A stretch of 64,000 nt of DNA, taken from contig CAZYUB010000004.1 of assembly GCA_964650515.1 (NCBI GenBank), forward strand, positions 5,541 through 69,540. The letters are read 5' to 3'. Made by a program: the position numbers and the translations under genes. Below, one piece after another: positions 9,326-25,415 of this stretch; the first letter of the stretch is position 1; each line of letters begins with the position of its first letter. Source of the stretch: an uncultured Planctomycetia bacterium. GTDB lineage: Bacteria > Omnitrophota > Gorgyraeia > Pluralincolimonadales > Pluralincolimonadaceae. The notes below the pieces were generated by a model. The model had not been told where the DNA came from and did no database searches. It saw only the letters and a list, made by a program, of their open reading frames with translations.

Positions 9326-10261
9326 ATGAAAAAATTCATAAAAGACCTGAAGGTAAATGACGGCATAGAGTCGGTATTTTTCCTCAAGAAGAAAGAGCTC
9401 GCGCGCACGCAGGCGGGCAAGCCGTACCTCAAGATGACGCTATCCGACAAGACCGGCCGCATGGAAGCGAAGATGTGGGAGGGCGGCGAGCAGGCCGACG
9501 AGATGGTCGCGACGGGGCAGGCGGTATTCGTCAATGGCCGCGTCGATTCCTATAACGGCCTGCAGATACGCGTGGACGGGATCCGCCTCGCCGACCAGAA
9601 GGAATACAAATTCGAGGAGCTCGTCCGCTCCGTCGAGGACCCCGACAAGATATTCAAGAGCATAAAGGAGATGCTCGACGGAATCCGGGACAAGTGGCTT
9701 GCCACACTCGCGAAGGAATTCCTCGACGACGAAGAGCTGATGGCGAAGTTTCGCAAGTCGCCCGGCGCGCAGAACTGGCACAACGCCTACATCGGCGGGC
9801 TCATGGAACACACCTACGAGGTGATGCACATCTGCCGCGAGGTATGCGGGCTCTATCCTGAGGCCGACCGCGACGCTGTCATCATCGGCGCTTTTACGCA
9901 CGACATCGGCAAGACGGTCGAGCTCGACATCAACACTTTTGAATACACGCTCGACGGCGGCCTGATAGGCCACCTGACGCTCGGCTTCGAGATATTATCT
10001 CGCAAGATCGCGGGCATCAAGGGATTCCCGCAGGATAAGGCCCTGGCGCTCAAGCATATAATCCTCGGCCACCACGGCGAGTACGACCAGCAGTCGCCGA
10101 TATTGCCGAAGACGCTCGAGGCGACGATCGTCTACCACGCCGACGAGCTCGTCTCGCAGGCGAACGCGGTCAAGGAAGTGATCTCGCAGCAATCCGACGG
10201 CGACAAGCTCTGGTCCAACTTCATCACGATCAAGAACCGCAAGTACCTGCTGAAAAAATAA
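9326..10261 (+). CDS. OB-fold + HD-domain protein (YhaM-like 3'-5' exoribonuclease family)
   Basis: N-terminal OB-like region; HD motif context ...IGAFTHDIGK... and HIILGHHGEYD; length about 310 aa, typical of YhaM. Confidence 0.55.
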   Translation: MKKFIKDLKVNDGIESVFFLKKKELARTQAGKPYLKMTLSDKTGRMEAKMWEGGEQADEMVATGQAVFVNGRVDSYNGLQIRVDGIRLADQKEYKFEELVRSVEDPDKIFKSIKEMLDGIRDKWLATLAKEFLDDEELMAKFRKSPGAQNWHNAYIGGLMEHTYEVMHICREVCGLYPEADRDAVIIGAFTHDIGKTVELDINTFEYTLDGGLIGHLTLGFEILSRKIAGIKGFPQDKALALKHIILGHHGEYDQQSPILPKTLEATIVYHADELVSQANAVKEVISQQSDGDKLWSNFITIKNRKYLLKK

Positions 10262-10263
10262 TA

Positions 10264-10303
10264 ATAGGGACGGTTCTTGAGGCAATCGGAGAAGTGTCCC
10301 CCT
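10264..10303. repeat. Family-1 hairpin repeat copy 2, immediately after the 10261 stop
   Basis: TAGGGACGGTTCTTGAGGCAATCGGAGAAGTGTCCCCC. Confidence 0.8.
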
Positions 10304-10316
10304 TTTTGGAGGCGCA

Positions 10317-10862
10317 GTGGCAGACAGTTCCAATATTTTCCTGTGGATCATCAAAACCTGCGGCAAAGTCATCCTGAAACCGTCGGAGTTTTTCGGCGGC
10401 CTCAGCGGCAGGAAACCGGAATACTGGCAGGCATACGCGTTCAGCTTACTGCTGACGTTCGTTTCGGTGATAACGGCCGTCGCCGCGGACACGTTCCTGG
10501 CGTCCTCGGGGTATTTCGCGACAACGATGCCGCCGGGCCTGTCGCTCGCGACGATGATCGGCGCGATGATAGCTTCCGCCGTCGCGGTGTTTTTCATCAC
10601 CGGCCTGCTCCACGGGTGCCTTATCGTGGCGGGAAGCTCGGGAAGCATCAAGAAGACGTTCCTCGTTACGGCATACAGCTCGGCCGCGTACATATTTTTT
10701 GTCATCCCGTTCATCGGCGGGACATTGAGCAACATAATCTGGATAATCCTGGTCATTACTGGCCTCAAGAAAATACACGACATAAGCATCGTCAGGGCGA
10801 TAGCCAGCGTCCTGGCGTTCATGATCATCCCGGTGATAATCGGCATACTGTTTTTCAGATAG
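10317..10862 (+). CDS. Yip1-like multi-pass membrane protein (GTG start)
   Basis: Five hydrophobic segments; FFGGLSGRKPEYWQAYAF... resembles the Yip1/DUF1282 family. Confidence 0.45.
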   Translation: MADSSNIFLWIIKTCGKVILKPSEFFGGLSGRKPEYWQAYAFSLLLTFVSVITAVAADTFLASSGYFATTMPPGLSLATMIGAMIASAVAVFFITGLLHGCLIVAGSSGSIKKTFLVTAYSSAAYIFFVIPFIGGTLSNIIWIILVITGLKKIHDISIVRAIASVLAFMIIPVIIGILFFR

Positions 10863-10870
10863 GAGGCAAG

Positions 10871-11254
10871 ATGTACAAGGTCGACGTTTCGTGCATGGCC
10901 GGCAACACCTTCAGCGTGACTTCAGGCGAGGGGAAGATGACCATCGATATCGCCGAAAAGGACAACCTGGGGCCGCTGCCGACGCTTTTAGCGGCGCTCG
11001 GCTCGTGCATCGGCGTTTACCTGCGCCGTTATGCCGACAACCTTAAACTGCCGATAGGGGAATTCAGCGTCAGCGTCGAGGCGGACCTCATCAAGGAGCC
11101 GCCGGTGGGCTTCCGCAAGATCAACGTCTCGGTGGATTTAAAGGGCGCCCAGCTCGACGAGCAGAAGACGGAAGGGCTCGCGCGCTTCATCAAGAATTGC
11201 CCGGTGCACAATACGCTGCACGGGAACCCGGAGATTGGTTTTAAGATAGGATAG
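10871..11254 (+). CDS. OsmC/Ohr-family peroxiredoxin-like protein
   Basis: MYKVDVSCMAGNTF...LLAALGSCIGVYL...NCPVHNTL: the two conserved Cys regions of OsmC. The 10277..11254 track ORF is an over-extension. Confidence 0.75.
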   Translation: MYKVDVSCMAGNTFSVTSGEGKMTIDIAEKDNLGPLPTLLAALGSCIGVYLRRYADNLKLPIGEFSVSVEADLIKEPPVGFRKINVSVDLKGAQLDEQKTEGLARFIKNCPVHNTLHGNPEIGFKIG

Positions 11255-11262
11255 GAGTTGCC

Positions 11263-11637
11263 GTGTTGAATATCCTCCTGTTTTTGGTGGTGTTTGTAGT
11301 CGATTTTATTATAGAAGCATTGTTTGTGCAGGTCGGCACGAAGATAGTCGCGAGATTCTGGCCGCCTTTCTGGACGGCTGTTAAGGCCGTGTTCCTCGGA
11401 TTTATGTGCTTAATGGTCATCGGGATCCTGGCACTGCCTTTTAGCAAGAATATGATCGGCATCTTCGCGTCTTTTATAGGATTCTTTTCTGTGGCGACAA
11501 TATATGGGATCATGATTAAGAGCCCCGAGCAGCGCCCGATCGGAACGGGAAAGGCCTGCCTTGTCCTGCTGATACAGTTAGCTTTGACCGTAATCATCGG
11601 GCTGGCAGTGACAACGGTGTTCCCTCCGGGGGATTGA
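11263..11637 (+). CDS. Small membrane protein (GTG start)
   Basis: Three TM helices; no recognised family. Confidence 0.45.
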   Translation: MLNILLFLVVFVVDFIIEALFVQVGTKIVARFWPPFWTAVKAVFLGFMCLMVIGILALPFSKNMIGIFASFIGFFSVATIYGIMIKSPEQRPIGTGKACLVLLIQLALTVIIGLAVTTVFPPGD

Positions 11638-11643
11638 AGTAAA

Positions 11644-11690
11644 TGTGGATAACCACCCCCTAGGGTGGGTGAAAATAGGACGGCAACGCC
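11644..11690. repeat. Family-3 hairpin element copy b (inverted relative to copy a)
   Basis: TGTGGATAACCACCCCCTAGGGTGGGTGAAAATAGGACGGCAACGCC is the reverse complement of 9266..9312 apart from 2 mismatches. Confidence 0.8.
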
Positions 11691-11692
11691 TT

Positions 11693-14600
11693 ATGCCTTT
11701 AAATTTAAATGAAAAACAAAAGTTAGCCGCGGAGACGCTTGAAGGGCCCGTATTGGTGCTGGCAGGGCCGGGAACGGGAAAGACCGAGCTCTTGTCCGTG
11801 CGCGCGGCGAATATAATCAAGTCGAAGAAGGCCCGCCCCGAGAATATCCTTATTTTGACATATACAAACGCGGCCGCTAAGGCGATGAAAGAGCGGCTCG
11901 TGAAATTACTCGGAGCCGACGCTTATAATATCGAGACCGCGACATTCCACAGCTTCGCGAATAACGTCGTTCTCGAGAGCGATGAAGCCGCCGAATACAT
12001 ACAGGAACGCGTCCAGATAACAGATATCGAGCAGATAAAACTCCTCGAATACATTTTGGACAACACCGACGGCATCGACAAGATCCGGCCGTTCCGCGCG
12101 CCGTACGCGTTCGAGCGCGAGATAAGCCAGCGGATAACCGAGCTCAAGCGCGAAGGCGTCTCGCCCGCCCGGTTCGCCGAGATAATCGAAAAAACCGAGC
12201 CAGACGGCGCCTACATCGAAGAAAAGCACATAGAGCGTCTCAGAGCCCTGGCCACCGTGTATAAGCTGTATGAAGAGTACAAAGCGGGCAAAAATAAGGC
12301 ACTTTTCGATGACCGCGGCCGCTACGATTACGACGACATGATACTTTTCGCGACCGAGGCGATCAAAAATGAGCCCGAGCTTGCGCGCGCGCTTCGCTCA
12401 CAGTACACCTACATCATGGTTGATGAGTTCCAGGACACCAACGGTGCCCAGATGGATTTGCTCTTCCAAATAGGGGACGTGTCGCTTGGGGACGTGTCAA
12501 AAAGGGACAGGTCGCCTAATTTATGCTGCGTCGGGGATGACGATCAGTCAATTTTCCGCTTCCAGGGTGCCTCTGTCGCGAATTTCAGGGAGTTTAAGAA
12601 GAGATTCCCCGATCTGAAAGTAATCCCTCTGGAGAAGAATTATCGCTCAACAAAAGAGATAATCTCGCTTTCCGACCGCATAATAAATAACCTGCCCAAA
12701 AAAGAGCGCTACGAGGCCAAAACGCTCGCCCCGGAGCAGGATTTCAAGCAAAAGACCATAGAATACAACGAATTCACGACCGAGACCGAAGAACTGCTCT
12801 TCATCACGCGCCGCATAAAGGAGCTGATGAAGGCCGACAAGTCGCTGACATATGACGAGATCGCGGTCCTCGTGCGCCAGCGCGACGACATCCTCAAGAT
12901 CGTCGACACTTTCCTGCGCGCCGGCATTCCGTACGCGACCGACGGCAAGGAGGACATCGCCGGAGAAAAGCGCGTCCGCCAGATGCTCGACGTGTTGTAT
13001 TTCGCGCACACGCCGGATATGGAGGTCGAGCAGAAGGACGCCTATCTTTACCGAATTTTGACCGCCGATTACATGCGCATCCCGATGAACGACGTCCTGC
13101 GCTTCATTGCCGCCGTCCGCGCGAAGAAGCATGACCAGCGCAAGAAGGGCGAAGCCCCGACGATTTCGATGTTCAGCGAATACATGGGGACGTGTGGATT
13201 AGGGACGTGTCAAAAGGGGACAGGTCGCAAAGCCGGAAAAGAGGGCGGAGTGTCCCAAAGTGACACGTCCCCTCTTGCTACGCTTCTTTACGAAGCCGAA
13301 AGCAAGCCCGTGCACGCAATGCTTATGCAATTCATCAAGGATGCCGGGGTAATGAAGTTCATCCTCGAAAAATATAATGATAACGATCTTTTGCGCATTC
13401 GCGACCTGCGGGCGCTGACGTCGTTCGTGAACATGGTCAAGGAGTCCGACATCGCGCGGCCGGGCATCACGCTAAAGGAATTCATCGACGAGCTCGAGAC
13501 GCGCAAGGCCCACGGCATTTCCCTGCAGGGCGAGCTCGTGACCGCCACACAGGAGGGAGTCAGGATCTACACGGCCCACGGCTCGAAAGGCCTGGAGTTC
13601 AACACGGTCTTCATCCCGTTCTGCCTCGACAAGAAGCGCTGGCCGAAGAAGCCGCAAGGGGTCACCATCCCGCTTCCGCCCGAGGTCTACAAGTCGAAGG
13701 AGATCCCGACCGACAAGGAGATCTTGAAACAGCTCGATTATTACGACGAGACGCGGCTCTTCTACGTCGCCTCGACGCGCGCGAAGGCGAATCTTATCTA
13801 TACGGCAAGCCCGACCGAGAGCACGGTCCCGAGCTCTTACCTTTCAGGCGTTGAGGTAAAAGGGGAGAGCCGCAAAGAGGAAGCCCTGCTCAAAGTTTCG
13901 CTTCAGCTCGCTGAAGCTCAAGACCCGTTCATCGGCACGTCCAAGGTCCTGTCGGACCTTGTCCAGGACCTTTCGCTGAACCCGACCGCGCTAAACAATT
14001 ACATCAACTGCCCGCGCAAATATCTTTATGATGACGTCCTGCTCCTGCCGTCGGCAAAGAAGCAGTCGCTCGTCTTCGGTAACTGCACCCACAAGGCGCT
14101 CGAGGACGTGTATGATAAATTCATGAAGACCGGCAAGTTCCCGGATTTCGCGTCCTTCAAGGCCTCGTTTGCCCGCGAGCTCGACCACGAAGCCCCTGAA
14201 ACCGCGATAAAGACCGCCTGCCTGCGCCAGGTCGAGACTTTCAAGAAGTGGTATAAGGAAGAGTCGCGCGCGCCGGTCAAACCGCTCGGCCTCGAGAGGC
14301 GGCTGGTGGTCATGCTCGATGACGATTTGAAATTCACGGGCAAGTATGATAAGACCGAGGCACTGGATGGGAGTGTACGAGTCTTAGATTATAAGACGGG
14401 CGAGCCGGACCGCCATGTCAAAGGTATAAATAAATCCCTCAAAGAGGCGATCCCGCTTGCCAGCGACGAGTTCGAGGATTACCTGCGCCAGCTCATCTCA
14501 TACAAATTGCTCTTCGACAAGGACAAGAAAGAGTCGCAGGGCCGCAAGGTAAAGGAGGGCGTGCTCGTCTTCCTCGACCCGGCCAAAGAGACGGTCGCCA

Positions 14601-15211: not shown

Positions 15212-15240
15212 TTGACATATATTATACAATAATATATACT
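15212..15240 (+). promoter_or_regulatory. Sigma70-type promoter upstream of the fic-radC-hsdM operon
   Basis: TTGACA (15212-15217), a 17-nt spacer, then TATACT (15235-15240), in a 100-bp AT-rich intergenic region. Confidence 0.6.
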
Positions 15241-16427: not shown

Positions 16428-17147
16428 TTGAAAAAAGAGAATCGTTCTACAGGTATTAAGAGCTGGCCGGAGGACGACAGGCCGCGCGAAAAGCTACTCA
16501 AGAAGGGGGCGGGGGTTTTGAGCAATTCTGAGCTTCTGGCAATTCTTCTTCGAACCGGCACAAACGGGACCAGTGCAATAGACCTTGCCCGCGATATCCT
16601 CAAGAAATTCGGCTCATTTCGCAATATGGCGTATACAGATGCTCGAGACTGGAAGGAATTCAAGGGTTTGGGGGGTGCCAAGATTGCCCATATTCAGGCC
16701 GCGCTTGAGATCGGGCGACGTTATCGTGAAAATGATGTATCCACAGGGAAACAGAAGATTGTCTCCGCCAAGGATATTGTAGATATAGTCATGCCCCAAC
16801 TTCGCGACCTCAAAACCGAAGTATTTAAAGTTGTCTATCTCGATAGCAACAATCGTATAATAGATATATCCGATACAGCCGCCGGAACAGTCGACAAAGC
16901 ATTTCCAATTGTCCGTGAAATTATCCATGCCGCTTTGCAAAAATTCGCCAAGTCGATTGTTTGCGTTCACAACCACCCCAGTGGCAATACTGTTCCAAGC
17001 GCTCAAGACAAGAAATTCACCGAAGATTTAACCGCCGCCGCGGATTTGTTAGGCATTAAGGTTCTCGACCATATCATCATAGGCGGTACCGATTATTATA
17101 GTTTTTCAGAAGAGGGGAGGCAGAATGCCCAGAAGCAAACAGTCTAA
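16428..17147 (+). CDS. radC: RadC-like JAB/MPN-domain protein (TTG start)
   Basis: ERPREKLL helix-hairpin region at the N-terminus and JAMM motif HNHPSGNTVPS. Confidence 0.8.
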   Translation: MKKENRSTGIKSWPEDDRPREKLLKKGAGVLSNSELLAILLRTGTNGTSAIDLARDILKKFGSFRNMAYTDARDWKEFKGLGGAKIAHIQAALEIGRRYRENDVSTGKQKIVSAKDIVDIVMPQLRDLKTEVFKVVYLDSNNRIIDISDTAAGTVDKAFPIVREIIHAALQKFAKSIVCVHNHPSGNTVPSAQDKKFTEDLTAAADLLGIKVLDHIIIGGTDYYSFSEEGRQNAQKQTV

Positions 17148-18738
17148 CGCTAAACCCAAGAAACAGGAATCCTTCACAGACGCCCTCTGGAAATCCGCGG
17201 ACAAACTGCGCAAGAATATGGACGCCGCGGAATATAAGCATGTGGTGATGGGGCTTATCTTCCTGAAATATATCTCTGACGCTTTCGAAGTCCTGCATTC
17301 AAAGCTCGTCCGGGGCAAGGGCGAATACGAAGGCGCGAACTCCGAAGATCCCAACGAGTATACCGCCGAAAAAGTATTTTTCGTGCCTCCGATAGCGCGC
17401 TGGAAGCATATCTCAGACAACGCTAAAAAGACCGAAATTTTGCTCGATAACGGTAAGAAAGTCGACATCGGCGGTTATATCGACGAAGCCATGGAAGCAA
17501 TCGAGCGACAGAATACCTCACTCAGAGGCGTTTTGCCTAAAGTGTATGCCCGGCAGAACTTGGACCGCACCAGTCTCGGCGGTTTGATAGATCTTATAGG
17601 CACCATAGCCTTGGGAACCGAAGAAGCCAAGAGCAAAGACATCCTCGGTCAGGTATATGAATATTTCCTCGGCCAATTCGCCCTCGCCGAAGGCAAGAAG
17701 GGCGGGCAGTTCTACACTCCGCGCAGCGTTGTAAAACTGTTGGTCGAGATGCTCCAGCCATTCGAAGGCCGGGTATTCGATCCCTGCTGCGGTTCGGGCG
17801 GCATGTTCGTGCAGAGCGAGAAGTTCATTGAAGCCCATCAGGACCACTACAAGAAGAAACCCAAAGGTGTCAGCCTCAATCCGAGCGACATGATCTCCAT
17901 CTACGGTCAGGAATCCAACCAGACCACCTGGCGCCTGGCCAAGATGAATCTGGCTATCCGCGGCATCGACAGCTCCAACGTCAAATGGAACAACGAAGGC
18001 TCTTTCCTCAACGATGCGCACAAGGACCTGAAGGCCGATTTTATCATCGCCAATCCGCCGTTCAACGATTCCGACTGGTCCGGCGATCTCTTGAAAGATG
18101 ACGCCCGCTGGAAATACGGTATTCCGCCCAGCGGTAACGCCAATTATGCCTGGATCCAGCATTTCATCTATCATATCTCGCCGTCAGGCGGAATGGCCGG
18201 GTTTGTCCTGGCCAAAGGTTCTCTGACTTCCAAGACCAACAACGAAGGCGAAATCCGCAAAACCATCATCGAGGCCGGGTTGCTCGATTGTATAGTCAAT
18301 CTTCCGGCAAAGCTTTTCCTGAATACCCAAATTCCCGCTTGTCTTTGGTTCTTATCGCGTAAAAAAGAGGGTAGGCTGGATAAAGTATTGTTCGTCGATG
18401 CCCGCAATATGGGTTATTTGATCAACCGCCGCACCCGCGATTTTACGGATGAAGATATCGCCAAGATTGCAGATACCTACCATCATTGGCGCAACAAAAA
18501 CGATAAATATGAAGACGTCCCCGGCTTCTGCAAATCCGTCACTCTCGACGAAATCAGGCAGAAAGATTATGTGCTCACGCCGGGCCGCTACATCGGCTTG
18601 CCGGAAGAAGAGGATGATTTCGACTTTGCCGAACGTTTCTCCAAGCTTAAAACTGAGCTGGAAGAGCAGATGAAAGAAGAGGCGCACCTGAATGAGCTTA
18701 TTCGTCAGAATCTTGCGAAATTGGAGATAAAGAAGTGA
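17125..18738 (+). CDS. hsdM: Type I restriction-modification system methyltransferase subunit HsdM
   Basis: N-terminal LWKSADKLRKNMDAAEYKHVVMGLIFLKYISD, SAM motif DPCCGSGGM, catalytic IIANPPF. Confidence 0.9.
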   Translation: MPRSKQSNAKPKKQESFTDALWKSADKLRKNMDAAEYKHVVMGLIFLKYISDAFEVLHSKLVRGKGEYEGANSEDPNEYTAEKVFFVPPIARWKHISDNAKKTEILLDNGKKVDIGGYIDEAMEAIERQNTSLRGVLPKVYARQNLDRTSLGGLIDLIGTIALGTEEAKSKDILGQVYEYFLGQFALAEGKKGGQFYTPRSVVKLLVEMLQPFEGRVFDPCCGSGGMFVQSEKFIEAHQDHYKKKPKGVSLNPSDMISIYGQESNQTTWRLAKMNLAIRGIDSSNVKWNNEGSFLNDAHKDLKADFIIANPPFNDSDWSGDLLKDDARWKYGIPPSGNANYAWIQHFIYHISPSGGMAGFVLAKGSLTSKTNNEGEIRKTIIEAGLLDCIVNLPAKLFLNTQIPACLWFLSRKKEGRLDKVLFVDARNMGYLINRRTRDFTDEDIAKIADTYHHWRNKNDKYEDVPGFCKSVTLDEIRQKDYVLTPGRYIGLPEEEDDFDFAERFSKLKTELEEQMKEEAHLNELIRQNLAKLEIKK

Positions 18739-19805
18739 GTGAGTGGAAGGAATGTAAATTAGGTGATTTCGTCCAGATTAATTACGGAAAAGGCTTGCCC
18801 GAACATAAAAGAACTTTTGGTAATGTACCAGTATATAGTTCTGCAGGTGTAACAGGTTGGCATGATACGCCACTAGTAAAGTCTGAAGGAATTATTATTG
18901 GCAGAAAAGGTACGATCGGTACTGTCTATTATGCTAGCGAACCGTTTTTTTGTATTGATACGGCATATTATATTGAACCAAATAAGTCGAAGTACGATCT
19001 TAAATTTCTTTTTTATTTGTTGCAGACACTTAGATTAAATGAGTTAAACGAAGATAGTGCCGTGCCTGGCCTAAATAGGAATACGGCATATGATCAAGAT
19101 ATAATTCTTCCATCTTTGCCAGAACAGCGTGCCATTGCCGTAATCCTTTCCAGTCTTGACGACAAAATCGACCTTTTACATCGCCAGAACCAAACCCTCG
19201 AATCCATAGCTGAGACAGTTTGGCTGAAGGCACTCGAAGAAGATGTAAATCCGTCCACAGTAAATCTTGGAGATATAATTGACTTATATGACAGTAAGCG
19301 TATTCCTCTTTCAAGTATGCACAGAAATAAAATGAAAAAAGGCGCTCTGTATCCTTATTATGGGGCTGCTAAAATAATGGATTATGTAAATCAATATATT
19401 TTTGAAGGCGAATATTTATTATTAGGTGAAGATGGAACGGTTCAAACTGAAGAAGGTTTTCCCATTCTACAGTTAGCAACTGGAAAATTTTGGGTAAATA
19501 ATCATACGCATGTTATAAAAGCTAAAAATCCGTTTAGCAATTTTTTGTTATATATTATCTTAAGAAAAATGACTATCTCTCAAATTATAACGGGTGCAGT
19601 GCAGCCAAAAATCAATCAAGAAAACTTAAAATCTCTAAGAATAGAAATTCCTGGTAAAAGGCGCATCAATGAAATTGCGATATTGATGGATGAGATATGG
19701 CAAAAAATTCAAAATAACAAATCTCAAGTTATTATAGTTGAAAAAATAAGAGATGCATTGCTGCCAAGATTGATGTCAGGAGAAATGATAGTTGATTTAA
19801 ATTGA
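18735..19805 (+). CDS. hsdS: Type I RM specificity subunit HsdS (two target-recognition domains)
   Basis: Start overlaps the hsdM stop; central conserved LPSLPEQRAIAVILSSLDDKIDL; AT-rich as is typical for hsdS. Confidence 0.8.
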   Translation: MSEWKECKLGDFVQINYGKGLPEHKRTFGNVPVYSSAGVTGWHDTPLVKSEGIIIGRKGTIGTVYYASEPFFCIDTAYYIEPNKSKYDLKFLFYLLQTLRLNELNEDSAVPGLNRNTAYDQDIILPSLPEQRAIAVILSSLDDKIDLLHRQNQTLESIAETVWLKALEEDVNPSTVNLGDIIDLYDSKRIPLSSMHRNKMKKGALYPYYGAAKIMDYVNQYIFEGEYLLLGEDGTVQTEEGFPILQLATGKFWVNNHTHVIKAKNPFSNFLLYIILRKMTISQIITGAVQPKINQENLKSLRIEIPGKRRINEIAILMDEIWQKIQNNKSQVIIVEKIRDALLPRLMSGEMIVDLN

Positions 19806-19823: not shown

Positions 19824-21293
19824 ATGGAAGAAAAATCTTGGGCTTCGGATGATGTAATAACATTAGATATTTTGCTAGATTATCAGAATTCTCGAATAGA
19901 TGCTAATGAGAAATCCTCACAAGAAGAAATTAGAAAACTTTTACTAAAAACAGAGGATGTTGTTGAGCTTGCCAATAGTATTATTAGTACCAAAGGACTT
20001 TTACACGGAGAAAGAGTAATTATTGTTAACGAAAATAGTAAATCTATAGTATTGGAAGGCAATCGGAGAACTTGTGCGTGCCAATTATTATTAAACCCAG
20101 GGCTAATCCCTCAGGAGTTTAAGACAATATTTCCTATTTGTAATGATGAGTTAATAAAAAAAGAACTAGAATACTTGAAGGCTGACGTTGCCCCCAATAG
20201 ATTAGCAGCAGAAACTACTATAACCAAGAGACATACTGAACCTGGAGTATCACAATGGACTCCTCTTGCAAAACAAAGAAGGATTACGCGTCTTGTTGAA
20301 GCAGGTCGTTCTATTGAGGAATTAATGTCTGAGTTTGGAATGACTAGGCCGAATATTATAAAAACATTAAAAGAATACCATATTTTCCAATATGCAAAAA
20401 ATCTTCCTATCTGGGGGAAGACCGAACAGGACATATTTAATGATCCGACCCTTTCGATTAATCCCTTCACACGTTTTTTTGAGTTAAAAGGGGTCAAGAA
20501 AATATTAGCATTAAAACACAAGGAAACAGGTGAATTAGAAATCGGAATTGGCGAAGAACAATTTAACAAGATAATAGCTTTTATTGCTCGTGAATTTTTG
20601 ATTCCCGACAAAAATATTGGTAAGCCTAGCGCAAATACTCGAACGACTCCAGGGGAGTTGTTCGAAAAGATTTGTTCGCAGGATAAAGATATTAATGCAG
20701 TCTTGAAAGATAAATTAGAAGGGCATGATTTAGAAAGCAATAAAGAAAATCATACTGAAACCGAGAAAACGAAGCAAAACGCAGCTATTGTAACTACAGA
20801 TTCAACGACTCAACTGACTCCAGCACAACCTTCAGCAAAACCTGGGAAGTTCTTTGAGAATCTCAGCTGTTCCTTAAAAGATAATCAATTATTGTTAGTA
20901 GTAAGTGAAATATCCGATATAAATTACAAAAAATATCGTTTGGCGGCTACTTTTCTTGTAAGGGCTCTAGTTGAAAGAACTCTAAATTACTGCATTGATA
21001 AATATAAACTAAGAAAGCAACTACTAAAAGAGTTCCATACAGCGCATAAGGGATGTAAAGGTCTAGAGCCGGGTCTTGATTTCGTGATTAAATTTTGTAT
21101 AAATAACCACGATAAAATGTTTAATGTTAATAAAGTAAGTGATATGCTAAAAAAATGGAAAGGTGACAAGGATTTATTAGATATTATTATTCATGGCCGT
21201 TGGGCTAATCCCAGTGTTACAAACCTAGAACATTTTGCATCTATCATTCGGCCTACAATCGAAAAAATTCTTACTGGAAACGCCTTAAAATGA
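19824..21293 (+). CDS. ParB/Srx-like nuclease-domain protein (489 aa) nested in the type I RM operon
   Basis: N-terminus DILLDYQNSRIDANE...ELANSIISTKGLLHGERVIIVNEN..SIVLEGNRRTCACQLL matches the ParB N-terminal (ParBc) pattern including the GxRR box. The C-terminal 300 aa are unassigned. Very AT-rich. Confidence 0.5.
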   Translation: MEEKSWASDDVITLDILLDYQNSRIDANEKSSQEEIRKLLLKTEDVVELANSIISTKGLLHGERVIIVNENSKSIVLEGNRRTCACQLLLNPGLIPQEFKTIFPICNDELIKKELEYLKADVAPNRLAAETTITKRHTEPGVSQWTPLAKQRRITRLVEAGRSIEELMSEFGMTRPNIIKTLKEYHIFQYAKNLPIWGKTEQDIFNDPTLSINPFTRFFELKGVKKILALKHKETGELEIGIGEEQFNKIIAFIAREFLIPDKNIGKPSANTRTTPGELFEKICSQDKDINAVLKDKLEGHDLESNKENHTETEKTKQNAAIVTTDSTTQLTPAQPSAKPGKFFENLSCSLKDNQLLLVVSEISDINYKKYRLAATFLVRALVERTLNYCIDKYKLRKQLLKEFHTAHKGCKGLEPGLDFVIKFCINNHDKMFNVNKVSDMLKKWKGDKDLLDIIIHGRWANPSVTNLEHFASIIRPTIEKILTGNALK

Positions 21294-22222
21294 AAATGGG
21301 GCAAGAGGGCGGTCATCTAAATAATAAATTAATAACAAGAAATCTGAGCCCACTAAGGTATCCAGGATCAAAGCGTAAATTATCTCTTTATATTCGAGAA
21401 ATACTTCACCATAATAAACTTAATCCAGATCTTTTGATAGAGCCATTTGTTGGAGGCGGTAGCATTTCCCTATTCTTTATTGTCAATAACTTAGTAAAAA
21501 AAGTCCTTATTTCTGATAAGGACAAATTAATTTCTAGTTTTTGGAAAGTGATATTTTCCAATCCGGAACATATCATTCGCTTTGTTCAACGAGTAGAAAT
21601 AAGTGTTAAGAATTTCGATAAATATAAAAATATTGCCAAAGATGCAGGAAATTATAATGACATTGAATTAGCGAAAACATGTATTTTTCTTAATAGAACT
21701 AGTTTTTCCGGTGTCTTAGCTAATTCTGCTGGCCCAATCGGAGGGAGGAGACAGAAATCAGACTACAAAATCGATTGTCGTTTTAATAGAAAAGATATCG
21801 TAAAAAGAATTGTTTACATTTCCTCTTTAAAAGACAAAGTCATTGTTCGTGATGGTGAGTGGAAGGAGGTAATTAAGTATGCAGATGAATGGAAAAGAAA
21901 TAATAAAGAATATAATAAATCTTTTATATATTTAGACCCCCCTTTTTATTTTAAAGCTGAGAGTTTATACAGAACATATTTTAATTGTAAGCAACACGAA
22001 GAATTGGCCAAAGAATTAGAAAAATTAAATTGTCCATGGATTCTTAGTTATGATAATGTTCCACAGGTTAGAGAATTATATGAAAAGTCCAAAAATATTG
22101 TGCATATTGATATGCCATATTCAATCAATTCACATGCAAAGAGAATAGAAAAAGAACTGATAATTACCGGTTTGGCTTTACCTGGAGTAGATGAAATTAA
22201 TTTTGACCATAAAAATGAATAA
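21290..22222 (+). CDS. Dam-family (D12 class) N6-adenine DNA methyltransferase
   Basis: N-terminal RYPGSKRKL (compare Dam KWAGGKRxL), motif I EPFVGGGSISLFF, catalytic YLDPPFY (DPPY-type). Overlaps the upstream stop and the hsdR start. Confidence 0.7.
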   Translation: MKMGQEGGHLNNKLITRNLSPLRYPGSKRKLSLYIREILHHNKLNPDLLIEPFVGGGSISLFFIVNNLVKKVLISDKDKLISSFWKVIFSNPEHIIRFVQRVEISVKNFDKYKNIAKDAGNYNDIELAKTCIFLNRTSFSGVLANSAGPIGGRRQKSDYKIDCRFNRKDIVKRIVYISSLKDKVIVRDGEWKEVIKYADEWKRNNKEYNKSFIYLDPPFYFKAESLYRTYFNCKQHEELAKELEKLNCPWILSYDNVPQVRELYEKSKNIVHIDMPYSINSHAKRIEKELIITGLALPGVDEINFDHKNE

Positions 22223-25200
22223 CTTCACCGAATCCGAAATCGAAAATTATTCTCTCGATGAGCTAAAAAGGCTTGGGTTCTCGTATATTCCGGGCCCTGC
22301 AGTAGCTCCAGATGAAGCAGGGGCAGAGATGGTTGCGGAACCCGCAGTGCCTTATGGTTTATTTGAAAAGCGCGAGAGCTATGAAGATGTCATATTGAAG
22401 CATGCTTTAGAACAAGCCATCGAGCGGTTAAACCCCGCTATCTCCGAATCCGCACGCAAGGAAGCATTTAAAATGGTTCTTTCCGTATTTTCTCCTCAGC
22501 TAATCACTGCAAACGAAACTTTCCATACCATGCTTTCCGAAGGTGTGCCGGTTACTACGCACAAAGATGGGCAGGAGCGGGGGGAGAGGATATGGCTGAT
22601 CGATTTCCAGAATCCGGAAAACAACGTATTTTGCGCAATTAATCAGTTTACTGTCCAAGAGAATAATCAGCATAAGAGGCCGGATATAATTTTATATGTA
22701 AACGGAATGCCATTAGTGGTAATTGAGCTCAAGAATCCGGCTGATGCCAATGCTACGATTCGCAAGGCGTATGATCAAATCCAGACTTATAAAGTGGTTA
22801 TCCCGTCTTTATTCTTCTATAACGTTATTTGTGTGATTTCCGATGGTCTGGAGGCGAAGGTTGGCACAATAGCTTCTTCGTTTAGCCGGTTCCAGGCATG
22901 GAAGACTATCGATGGCAAGCAAGAGTCCTCAAGCCATGTTAGCCAGCTTGAGGTGCTGATTAAAGGAATGCTGAATAAGGCGACGCTTCTGGATTTGATA
23001 CGGAATTTCATCGTTTTCGAGAAGGACAAGAAGATCGATCCTAAGACCGGTTTGACGCAGATAGAAACAGTCAAGAAGATTGCCGCATATCATCAATATC
23101 ATGCGGTCAACAAGGCGGTTGAGAGCACGCGATGTGCCATATCCGAAAAAGGCAATCGCAAGGCTGGCGTAGTCTGGCATACTCAAGGCTCCGGCAAAAG
23201 CCTTTCTATGGTTTTCTATGCAGGCAAACTCATCCATAATCTCGACAATCCCACCGTTGTAGTTATTACCGACCGAAATGATCTTGATCAACAGCTTTTC
23301 GATACTTTTGCCGCTTCGCAGAGTTTACTCGGCCAGCCGCCGGTACAGGCGGAATCTCGCGACCATCTAAAATCTTTACTCAAGGTGGCATCGGGCGGAA
23401 TCGTATTTACCACAATCCAGAAGTTCTTTCCCGAGAATGAAAGCTCCACTTATGATCTGTTATCGGATCGCCGCAATATAATCGTCATTGCCGATGAGGC
23501 GCATCGGTCGCAATACGGGTTTGGGGCGAAGTTCGACGGCAAGCGGTTGGCCTACGGTTTTGCGAAATATTTGAGGGACGCCCTTCCAAGTGCGACATTT
23601 ATCGGGTTTACCGGTACGCCGGTTGAAAGTACAGATATCAACACTCCCGCAGTGTTCGGTAATTATATCGATATCTACGACGTCGCCCAGGCCATGGAAG
23701 ACGGAGCGACGGTGAAAATATATTATGAGAGTCGCTTGGCAAAGGTAAATCTGACGGCAGACGGTAGAAAACTGATCGAGGAGTTCGAGAAAGAGATGAC
23801 GGACGATGGAGCGACCGCCGTCCAGCAAGCCAAGGCCAAATGGACCAAGCTCGAAGCCATTGTCGGACATCCTCAACGGTTGAAGAATTTGGCAAGGGAT
23901 ATCGTCGAGCATTATAAGAAGCGTGCGGAAGTATTCGATGGCAAAGCCATGATCGTTACCATGAGTCGCAGGATTGCAGTGGCTTTGTACGACGCGATTA
24001 TCGCCTTGCGGCCGGAATGGCATAGCGATGATCTGAAGGAAGGTGCGCTGAAGGTCGTTATGACTTCGTCATCTTCCGATAAGATGGAATTCGATCCCGA
24101 AGATCCGGACAGCCTTGTTATTCCTGCTTGTCATCGCACGAACAAGCAAGACCGCCAGGTGCTTGCAGAAAGGATGAAAGAGCCGCGGGATCCTTTGAAA
24201 CTGGTTATCGTTCGGGATATGTGGTTGACGGGATTCGATGTTCCGTGCTTGCATACACTTTATATCGATAAACTAATGAAGGGCCATACTCTTATGCAGG
24301 CCATTGCGCGTGTGAACCGCGTGTTCATGGACAAGCCGGGTGGGCTTGTCGTCGATTATATCGGTATCGGCAACGCTCTTAAAGAAGCACTTGCATTTTA
24401 TGCGAGTTCGGGAGGAAAAGGCGATCCAGCCCAGACACAAGAAAAAGCAGTGGCTATGCTGGTCGAAAAAATAGAGGTGGTGCGCCAGATATTCCACGGA
24501 TTCGATTATATGCGGTTTTTCAAGGTGGGAACAGCGGAACGCTTGTCGATTATTCTACAAGCAGAGGAATTCATTCTTTCTAAAGAGCAGACGAAAGAAC
24601 GTTTTGTGAAGGAAGCGACTGCGCTTTCCAAGCTGTTCGCCTTGGCTGTACCGAACGAAGAAGCGATGAAACTGACGAATGAAATCGCTTTTTTTCAATC
24701 GGTCCGGGCGCGACTGCTTAAATTCGAAGGTGACGGAGAACGTGGAGAGAAAAGCTACGAAAGCGCTATACGTCAGATCGTGAATCAGGCGGTCGAATCG
24801 ACCGAGGTAGTAGATATTTTCGATGCGGCAGGGATTAAGAAGCCCGATATTTCCTTACTTTCCGAAGAATTTATGCTGGAAGTCAAGGAGATGAAGAATA
24901 AGAATCTAGGCGCTGAACTTCTGAAGAAGATTCTTAATGATGAGATTAAAGTGCGACTGAAATACAATATTACCGAAGGCAAAAAACTGTTGGATCTGCT
25001 GGAAGCATCTATAAGAAAATATCAGAACAATTTATTGACTACGGCAGAGATAATCGAAGAATTGATAAATATTGCCCGTCAAATTCGCGAAGTTGACGGG
25101 TTATCGGAGAAATTGAAGTTATCCAACGAGGAATTCGCTTTTTATACGGCGTTGGAGGTGAACGATAGCGCTGTAAAGGTATTAGGTGATGAAACACTCA

Positions 25201-25415
25201 AAGTCATCGCACGAGAAATAGCCGATAAGGTGCGCAAAAACGCTAGTATCGACTGGGCCCTGAAAGAAAGCGCTCGCGCGCGTCTCATGGTCATCGTCCG
25301 CCGCACACTGAATAAATATGGTTATCCGCCTGACAAGCAGCAGAAAGCGATCGATACCGTTATGAAGCAGGCCGAAGTGTTGGCGGATTATTGGGTCAAG
25401 AATGAGGAGAAATAA
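22214..25415 (+). CDS. hsdR: Type I restriction enzyme R subunit HsdR
   Basis: Nuclease region VIELKNPAD, helicase motif I TQGSGKSLSM, motif II IADEAHRSQ, motif VI QAIARVNR; about 1070 aa. Confidence 0.9.

Follow-up and report, generated by a model that had tools for sequence, protein, structure and literature searches.

A 64,000-nucleotide (nt) stretch of contig CAZYUB010000004.1, hereafter the window, whose numbering is used throughout, contains a type I restriction-modification (RM) operon with two further genes between hsdS and hsdR. These two, here called X and Y, occupy positions 19824-22222 on the + strand. The gene order on that strand is hsdM, hsdS, X (489 amino acids [aa]), Y (310 aa) and hsdR, as the initial annotation of this DNA had it. 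By their sequences, X and Y belong to the anti-phage system PD-λ-5. The genes, and the parts of X (with model confidence as predicted local distance difference test, pLDDT), are as follows.

17125..18738, + strand: hsdM, 537 aa, type I RM methyltransferase subunit; part of the host operon, outside the cargo; Pfam N6_Mtase 2.4e-109, HsdM_N 8.3e-22
18735..19805, + strand: hsdS, 356 aa, type I specificity subunit with two target-recognition domains; Pfam Methylase_S 2.4e-41 in 2 stretches
19824..21293, + strand: X, assigned to PD-λ-5 gene A, 489 aa; predicted ParB/Srx nucleoside triphosphate (NTP)-binding fold, helix-turn-helix (HTH), linker and HEPN-fold domain
19824..20258, + strand: X residues 1-145, predicted ParB/Srx (ParB-CTPase) fold
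20262..20399, + strand: X residues about 147-192, HTH, presumed DNA-binding
20751..20834, + strand: X residues 310-337, low-complexity disordered linker (pLDDT < 50), gapped, unconserved and of varying length across the family
20856..21290, + strand: X residues about 345-489, predicted four-helix domain of HEPN fold, with the triad R380/E384/H457
21290..22222, + strand: Y, assigned to PD-λ-5 gene B, 310 aa; D12-class (Dam-family) N6-adenine DNA methyltransferase
22215..25415, + strand: hsdR, 1066 aa, type I restriction subunit; Pfam HSDR_N, SWI2_SNF2, T1R_D3-like and T1RH-like_C; TIGR00348 1.5e-190

The host type I system is complete, with HsdM, an HsdS carrying both target-recognition domains, and an HsdR with nuclease, motor and C-terminal domains (Pfam, NCBIfam and PADLOC). 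Its junctions had been described as overlapping or shorter than 20 nt, and this is what we find. hsdM and hsdS overlap by 4 nt; the hsdS-X spacer is 18 nt long and includes an AGGAGG ribosome-binding site 9 nt upstream of X; the start of Y shares 4 nt (ATGA) with the end of X. The hsdR gene had been said to overlap the methyltransferase stop, and the Y stop codon does lie within hsdR, with an 8-nt overlap, when hsdR starts at the ATG at 22215 (MNNFTE...). A second in-frame ATG is present upstream at 22191; 22215 is taken as the start because the HsdR of a related locus, L081, which is 89% identical, begins MHNFTE and nucleotide homology resumes at 22214. Co-transcription of X and Y with hsdMSR is plausible from this arrangement. 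Promoter-like and terminator-like sites within the operon, as counted in a scan, equal those of shuffled sequence. The cargo is also far more AT-rich than its flanks, as previously claimed: the GC fraction is 0.346 for X and 0.307 for Y, compared with 0.507 for hsdM, 0.469 for hsdR and 0.523 for the whole window. hsdS (0.349) shares the low GC content of the cargo.

The initial annotation regarded the pair as a candidate undescribed defense module that corresponded to no named system. This claim has to be given up. X matches 22 models in PADLOC (best, 7.5e-32; PDLC04017 spans aa 5-480), every one of which is PD-Lambda-5_A, and it matches no other PADLOC model. Y matches PD-Lambda-5_B (PDLC04018, 4.3e-80). 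PD-λ-5 is a two-gene system of Escherichia coli ECOR7, found by functional selection and validated as anti-phage (Vassallo et al. 2022, PMC9519451); its protection extends to 9 of 10 phages tested and is strongest with T-even phages, and that study lists it as "ParB/HEPN, methyltransferase" in a supplementary table and labels it "RM+Abi". As the comparison copy we used an E. coli pair (L090) from the P2-prophage hotspot, flanked there by the genes for the replication endonuclease and the portal, whose 501-aa A protein matches PDLC03998 at 5e-168 and whose methylase matches PDLC04018 at 8e-122. Aligned with E. coli PD-λ-5A by hhalign, the X-family profile scores 99.3% (E = 3.9e-20) over 420 columns, covering residues 6-498 of 501, and the identity between Y and E. 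coli PD-λ-5B is 31% (E = 7e-57). X and Y also have the arrangement of PD-λ-5, with A followed by B, adjacent and in one operon, and X has the ParB/HEPN architecture of gene A. Judged by sequence, therefore, X-Y is a divergent copy of a named, validated system. The other half of the initial proposal, that a defense module is carried as cargo at the hsdS/hsdR junction, is upheld by this homology and by the intact type I RM operon around the pair. Our preferred explanation, to which we assign a probability of about 85%, is that the pair is a divergent PD-λ-5, a self-contained and horizontally mobile two-gene module that rides in an intact type I operon and works by an RM-like mechanism.

The assignment of Y is straightforward. 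It had been called a D12-class methyltransferase with FVGGGS and DPPF motifs, and a full-length match to Pfam PF02086 (7.9e-18) agrees; the two motifs are motif I (aa 53-58) and motif IV (aa 216-219), respectively. The closest solved chain is that of an adenine methyltransferase, 7m6b (6e-19). Cloning of the E. coli system needed an mrr-deleted host (PMC9519451), which indicates that PD-λ-5 B actively methylates DNA, at adenine.

X is harder to place from sequence. Standard scans of X against Pfam and NCBIfam gave no match, nor did phmmer against PDB sequences, and an X profile run against PDB sequences found only HTH repeats and PAI/ArsR-type HTHs at positions 150-188. Within the family, 7 to 11 of 46 members weakly match each of five Pfam HTH families. 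A lenient Pfam scan of the same 46 gave weak ParB_N matches in 6 (best, 0.026) and DUF4145 in 2 (0.072); on so few members and at that score, we do not claim DUF4145 membership for X. The HHpred analysis of the E. coli protein by Vassallo et al. gave ParBc at 96.4% and, for the C terminus, a weak DUF4145 match at 35.6% (PMC9519451). Because plain sequence searches found nothing or only HTH-like matches, the fold had to be assigned from an AlphaFold2 model, built from an alignment of 46 homologues and with a mean pLDDT of 90. Foldseek against the PDB placed ParB, Noc and KorB at the top (E = 4e-4, probability 1.0), with alignments running through the ParB HTH domain, and the viral structures matched are ParB/Srx and GmrSD-N proteins. 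The ParB N-terminal-like fold suggested earlier for the 489-aa protein is thus supported by the model. A mixed region lies between the HTH and the linker.

The motifs of the ParB fold in X are LDxxNxR (aa 17-25), a Box I-like ELANSI...GERVIIV (48-68), a Box II E78-G-N-R-R82, H137 and W145. Across 49 X-Y pairs, with E. coli among them, N22, R24, E78-G79-N80-R81-R82, H137, W145 and H457 are invariant. The Box I-like motif is conserved across the family as ELAxSI...GER(I/V)I(V), and the Box II P motif GxxR (G79-N-R-R82) occurs in 49 of 49. In ParB-fold proteins, the arginine of GxxR is required for NTP binding (PMC12704722). With a Box II GxxR and a Box I-like motif, X classifies as a protein of the ParB-CTPase fold and is predicted to be an NTP-binding switch. 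It has an asparagine, N80, where the GERR box of ParB has glutamate. That glutamate is implicated in CTP hydrolysis. In the C-terminal domain, R380 is present in 48 of 49 family members and position 384 is E or D in all. The Rx4-6H motif is absent from this HEPN-fold domain: H457 is preceded by D or N at -4 and by L, C, S or F at position 452 (-5), and R380 and E384 sit on a different helix from H457.

The X family is large: when 1.84 billion representatives were searched with its profile, 884 clusters scored E <= 1e-30, and a threshold of 1e-10 brought the number to 4,153. X and Y genes lie side by side in 48 loci from different phyla, and nearly every full-length X among 80 loci of GTDB species representatives has a Y-type methylase directly beside it. 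The methylase is usually downstream and co-directional. In five loci (L033, L036, L045, L046 and L059, at about 10001-12500 in each) it is convergent with the X homologue, and since a D12 methylase is still adjacent there, the linkage is kept even after the operon structure has been lost. Distances among X proteins correlate with those among Y proteins (Mantel r = 0.66, p <= 0.0005, 49 pairs); on these sequences, X and Y co-evolve. The defense proposal had been set against two possible outcomes, that X would prove to be a plasmid-partition ParB and that the methylase would lack conserved linkage. Neither materialized, as X has no ParB dimerization domain and X-Y linkage is strong.

Some members of the family depart from the pair. 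In L084, a relative at 53% identity, the 3' end of the methylase gene is overlapped by a staphylococcal nuclease (SNase) gene (L084:12327-12998), in an integrase-bearing element; X-Y-SNase may be a three-gene variant. Orphan PD-λ-5A-like genes occur in a Terasakiella sp. (L023:9995-11467) and in a Rhodospirillales metagenome-assembled genome (MAG; L024:9995-11467). Each encodes 490 aa, about 25% identical to X, with every invariant residue kept, and the flanking genes are of the housekeeping kind (two-component system, amidohydrolase, RNase H and APH).

The surroundings of the pair were sampled as the 146 nearest open reading frames (ORFs), two per side, of 40 independent GTDB pairs, scanned with Pfam and PADLOC. 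The commonest neighbors are HTH_3 (7), phage integrase (6), TniB/TniQ (Tn7-like), resolvases, N6_N4 methylases and AAA_15/21 ATPases (PtuA/AriA-like). No type I hsd family recurs among the 25 most recurrent families listed for these 146 neighbors, a result that one single hsd neighbor could have escaped. When the HsdM, HsdS and HsdR of the window were used as tblastn queries against the 80 GTDB loci, type I genes appeared in L053 only, upstream of the pair rather than flanking it; such queries pick up only moderately related hsd genes, hence the neighbor scans as backup. Individual loci place the pair in a defense island (NA-iREase2, RelA_SpoT, Mrr_cat and NERD), next to an MjaI-type RM system, in an integrase-bearing element or between housekeeping flanks. 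The neighborhood comparison recommended with the initial annotation thus finds the pair outside type I loci. From the recurrent mobile and defense neighbors, and from the varied individual contexts, X-Y is therefore, as far as gene content tells, a module both mobile and autonomous; residence in a type I operon does not characterize the family.

Only a small clade of five lineages, with X at least 71% identical (closest relatives, 71-79%), has the pair nested between hsdS and hsdR. L081, L082 and L083 share the order Fic - hsdM - [DUF4062/HATPase gene and two ORFs] - hsdS - X - Y - [TIR, ORF, ThsB-TIR] - hsdR. L091 reads hsdM - ORF - hsdS - X - Y, and L093 reads hsdS - X - Y. In L092, an Omnitrophica MAG, the order is X - Y - two unknown ORFs - hsdR, and HsdR is 47% identical to that of the window. 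Between the window and L081, identity is 87% for HsdM, 89% for HsdR, 79% for X and 81% for Y; since HsdS is only 26% identical, the specificity has been swapped. The gap between Y and hsdR is, within the clade, empty, filled by TIR-orf-TIR or filled by two unknown ORFs. AT-rich cargo and an AT-rich hsdS are common to the window and L081, and in each the GC content of the cargo is far below that of hsdM and hsdR. The L081 operon houses several separate cargo blocks: a DUF4062-HATPase_c_4 gene with two ORFs of no assigned family between hsdM and hsdS (L081:5513-8787), and a TIR gene, an ORF and a ThsB-like TIR gene between Y and hsdR (L081:12429-13932). On these gene orders, the operon serves as a slot whose specificity subunit and defense cargo turn over while X-Y keeps its place beside hsdS. 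PrrC and the Campylobacter Rlo genes are documented cases of genes embedded in type I operons. A "guilt-by-embedding" survey found that type I RM systems often contain embedded genes (Payne et al. 2024), and in Vibrio cholerae the defense genes tgvAB are embedded in a type I operon (PMC11411939). The embedding of defense genes in type I RM operons is thus an already documented pattern; we found no statement on PD-λ-5 in the paper by Payne et al. 2024 and no mention of PD-Lambda-5 in its supplements.

The mechanism that we propose for the pair is RM-like, with a possible abortive arm. Y would mark host DNA by methylating adenines within a short motif of its own. X would use its HTH to read DNA, with nucleotide binding in the GxxR pocket of the ParB fold as the gate, and would engage DNA lacking the mark of Y. 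Engagement would license the C-terminal HEPN-fold domain (R380/E384/H457), which is most likely a nuclease whose substrate is RNA or the nucleic acid of the invader. The phage would then be stopped directly or the infection aborted, an RNase of the abortive infection (Abi) type being possible. Beside the type I enzyme, the module would add a second methylation specificity and a second effector, giving layered immunity rather than serving as a type I subunit.

Several points weigh against this account. Every step beyond the identity of Y as an N6-methyladenine (m6A) methyltransferase is our deduction, and our literature search found no mechanistic paper on PD-λ-5. With N80 in place of the glutamate, X may bind NTP without hydrolyzing it, and the nucleotide is not predictable from the sequence, as the preference of ParB-fold proteins for CTP, ATP or GTP is unpredictable (PMC12704722). 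RNase activity of X is not assured without the Rx4-6H arginine; the C-terminal domain could instead be a sensor or an oligomerization module. The intact X-like genes of the alphaproteobacterial loci L023 and L024 have no D12 methyltransferase within 10 kb, which is hard to square with a strict rule that Y protects self from X unless an unlinked methylase, such as CcrM, substitutes. Finally, the co-transcription with hsdMSR is read off the gene junctions only.

A more specific form of the proposal is that PD-λ-5A is an NTP-gated, ParB-type clamp that loads where the m6A of its partner is absent and so switches on a non-canonical HEPN domain, the nested clade acting in addition as a backup when the type I enzyme is inhibited. 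We advance it tentatively and hold it to be rather unlikely in this complete form. If true, it would represent a restriction principle in which a sliding-clamp switch, and not a classical endonuclease, reads methylation status, and in the nested clade a PrrC-like logic would be achieved with other parts.

A mechanistic role for the nesting has also to be considered, on the model of PrrC: X of the nested clade would be held latent by HsdMSR, and its HEPN domain would be set free once the type I enzyme is inactivated by an anti-restriction protein of the phage. X does sit where prrC sits, at the hsdS/hsdR junction, and it likewise has an NTP-binding domain followed by a HEPN-type effector. The hsdS-X-Y junction is kept in five lineages although HsdR is 47% and HsdM fragments are 53-71% identical, and the protection given by embedded TgvAB was 10- to 100-fold greater when the whole cluster was present (PMC11411939). 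However, the family is overwhelmingly stand-alone, with no recurrent hsd neighbor among the families listed for the 40 GTDB pairs, and the E. coli system that was validated functions in a P2 prophage hotspot, where no type I genes accompany it (PMC9519451). Moreover, X travels with its own methyltransferase, itself a self/non-self logic, and in PADLOC it matches only PD-Lambda-5_A. The N domain of PrrC is an ABC-type ATPase, which that of X, with its ParB fold, is not. We consider such coupling improbable.

A role in maintenance rather than defense is more improbable still. The pair would then consist of a ParB-type partition or silencing protein and an orphan Dam methylase, serving for example in anti-restriction, which had entered the hsd operon by chance. 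The resemblance of the N-terminal half of X to ParB, Noc and KorB, HTH included, would be accounted for, as would family neighbors rich in integrases and transposition genes; ParB-fold/methyltransferase combinations are enriched in prophages, where an anti-defense role has been suggested (PMC12704722). Set against this, the C terminus of X is of HEPN fold and is not a ParB dimerization domain, with the R/E/H triad conserved across members, and no partition-ATPase family recurs in the two nearest ORFs per side, although ParA was not searched for explicitly. PD-λ-5 restricts phages experimentally (PMC9519451), and some pairs lie among chromosomal housekeeping genes. We give least credence of all to decay, in which the cargo is a functionless remnant or X alone regulates the hsd operon through its HTH. 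The strongly atypical GC content and an apparently fragmented hsdM in the relative L091 might be so explained, but both ORFs are full length for their families and retain every invariant residue, the translational coupling signals are intact, and X and Y are 71-81% identical over the five nested lineages, with no truncation save at a contig end or in the N-terminally short call of L092.

Some known identities were considered for the genes and set aside. X was not assigned to the partition ParBs (ParABS), as its neighbors in the window are the hsd genes and Y and a HEPN-fold C terminus takes the place of the dimerization domain. Nor was it called a PrrC homologue: its PADLOC matches include no PrrC model, its N domain has the ParB fold, and its family is mostly stand-alone. 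The pairing with a PD-(D/E)XK, HNH, GIY-YIG or PLD endonuclease that marks a classical type II RM system is not seen, and possession of its own methyltransferase is incompatible with X being a type IV (modification-dependent) enzyme.

Other genes of the window lie close to the operon. Directly upstream of hsdM (window:15279-17147) are a gene with a Fic domain (PADLOC SoFic, 5e-48) and a C-terminal HTH and a RadC/JAB gene, the latter overlapping the start of hsdM. The top promoter-like site of the region (11 of 12 matches, 15212-15240) is upstream of the Fic gene, and the operon may start there. L081 likewise has a Fic_N-Fic gene upstream of hsdM, yet the two are only 25% identical. Just upstream of the Fic-hsd block (window:11645-15172) is a gene for a 1049-aa UvrD-type helicase fused to a C-terminal PD-(D/E)XK/Cas4-like nuclease with a C-terminal cysteine cluster, after which comes a small YacP-like NYN-domain gene. 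Directly 3' of hsdR (window:25433-26210) are two AT-rich ORFs of 88 and 166 aa (GC 0.34 and 0.31) that have no Pfam or PADLOC match; they may be further defense cargo at the 3' end of the operon. In L081, hsdR is followed by AT-rich ORFs of 285 and 317 aa with no assigned family and by a PLDc_2 gene. Where the AT-rich island ends there is a probable toxin-antitoxin pair (window:26782-27341), made up of a MazE/AbrB-type antitoxin gene (92 aa) and an overlapping 122-aa ORF with no Pfam match.

No new defense system is revealed here, and in broad terms the locus is routine defense-island biology. Three additions are new: PD-λ-5 gains a divergent member from the environment, the nesting is seen to be conserved in a small clade whose co-cargo is exchangeable, and the pair is mapped at the level of residues. 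A pair that is normally free-standing and borne on mobile genetic elements is, in one clade, a fixture of the hsdS/hsdR interval, and the type I RM operon is seen there in clear natural form as a cargo slot for defense genes. The residue map (NxR, EGNRR, H137 and W145 in the ParB fold; R380/E384/H457 in a HEPN fold without Rx4-6H) is not in the literature and can be used by experimentalists to work out how PD-λ-5 functions.

Among known systems, the CTP-dependent clamps ParB, Noc and KorB share with X the N-terminal fold, with its Box I-like motif and Box II GxxR followed by an HTH, and are its best Foldseek matches in the PDB. X differs from them in lacking the ParA-interaction motif and the C-terminal dimerization domain, which is replaced by the HEPN fold, in having asparagine for the catalytic glutamate of GERR, and in its linked methyltransferase; no ParA is found among its operon neighbors in the window. 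PrrC/EcoprrI resembles the pair in its hsdS-[cargo]-hsdR position, in joining an NTP-binding N-domain to a C-terminal effector of the HEPN superfamily, and in being layered with a type I enzyme. It differs as a single gene with an ABC-type ATPase domain, a canonical HEPN site, no methyltransferase of its own and dependence on the type I complex, whereas X has a ParB fold, a non-canonical HEPN motif and its own methyltransferase and is usually not embedded. Nearly all PrrC occurs as an embedded gene of type I RM systems (Payne 2024). TgvAB is, like the pair here, a two-gene defense module embedded in a type I RM operon, and GmrSD proteins of the TgvB type also have an NTPase domain of the ParB/Srx superfamily (DUF262); in contrast to TgvAB, PD-λ-5 has a methyltransferase, which implies unmodified DNA as its target. 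The closest likeness is to PD-λ-5 of E. coli. Both genes and their order are the same, with an A protein of about 490-500 aa and ParB/Srx-HTH-HEPN-fold architecture and a D12-class B protein of about 300 aa, and the conserved motifs NxR, EGNRR, H137, W145, R...[E/D] and H are held in common. The sequences themselves are far apart: for A, BLASTP finds 36% identity over only some 87 residues at the N terminus. The settings differ too: the E. coli pair lies in a P2-like prophage, the pair described here inside the type I RM operon of an environmental bacterium.

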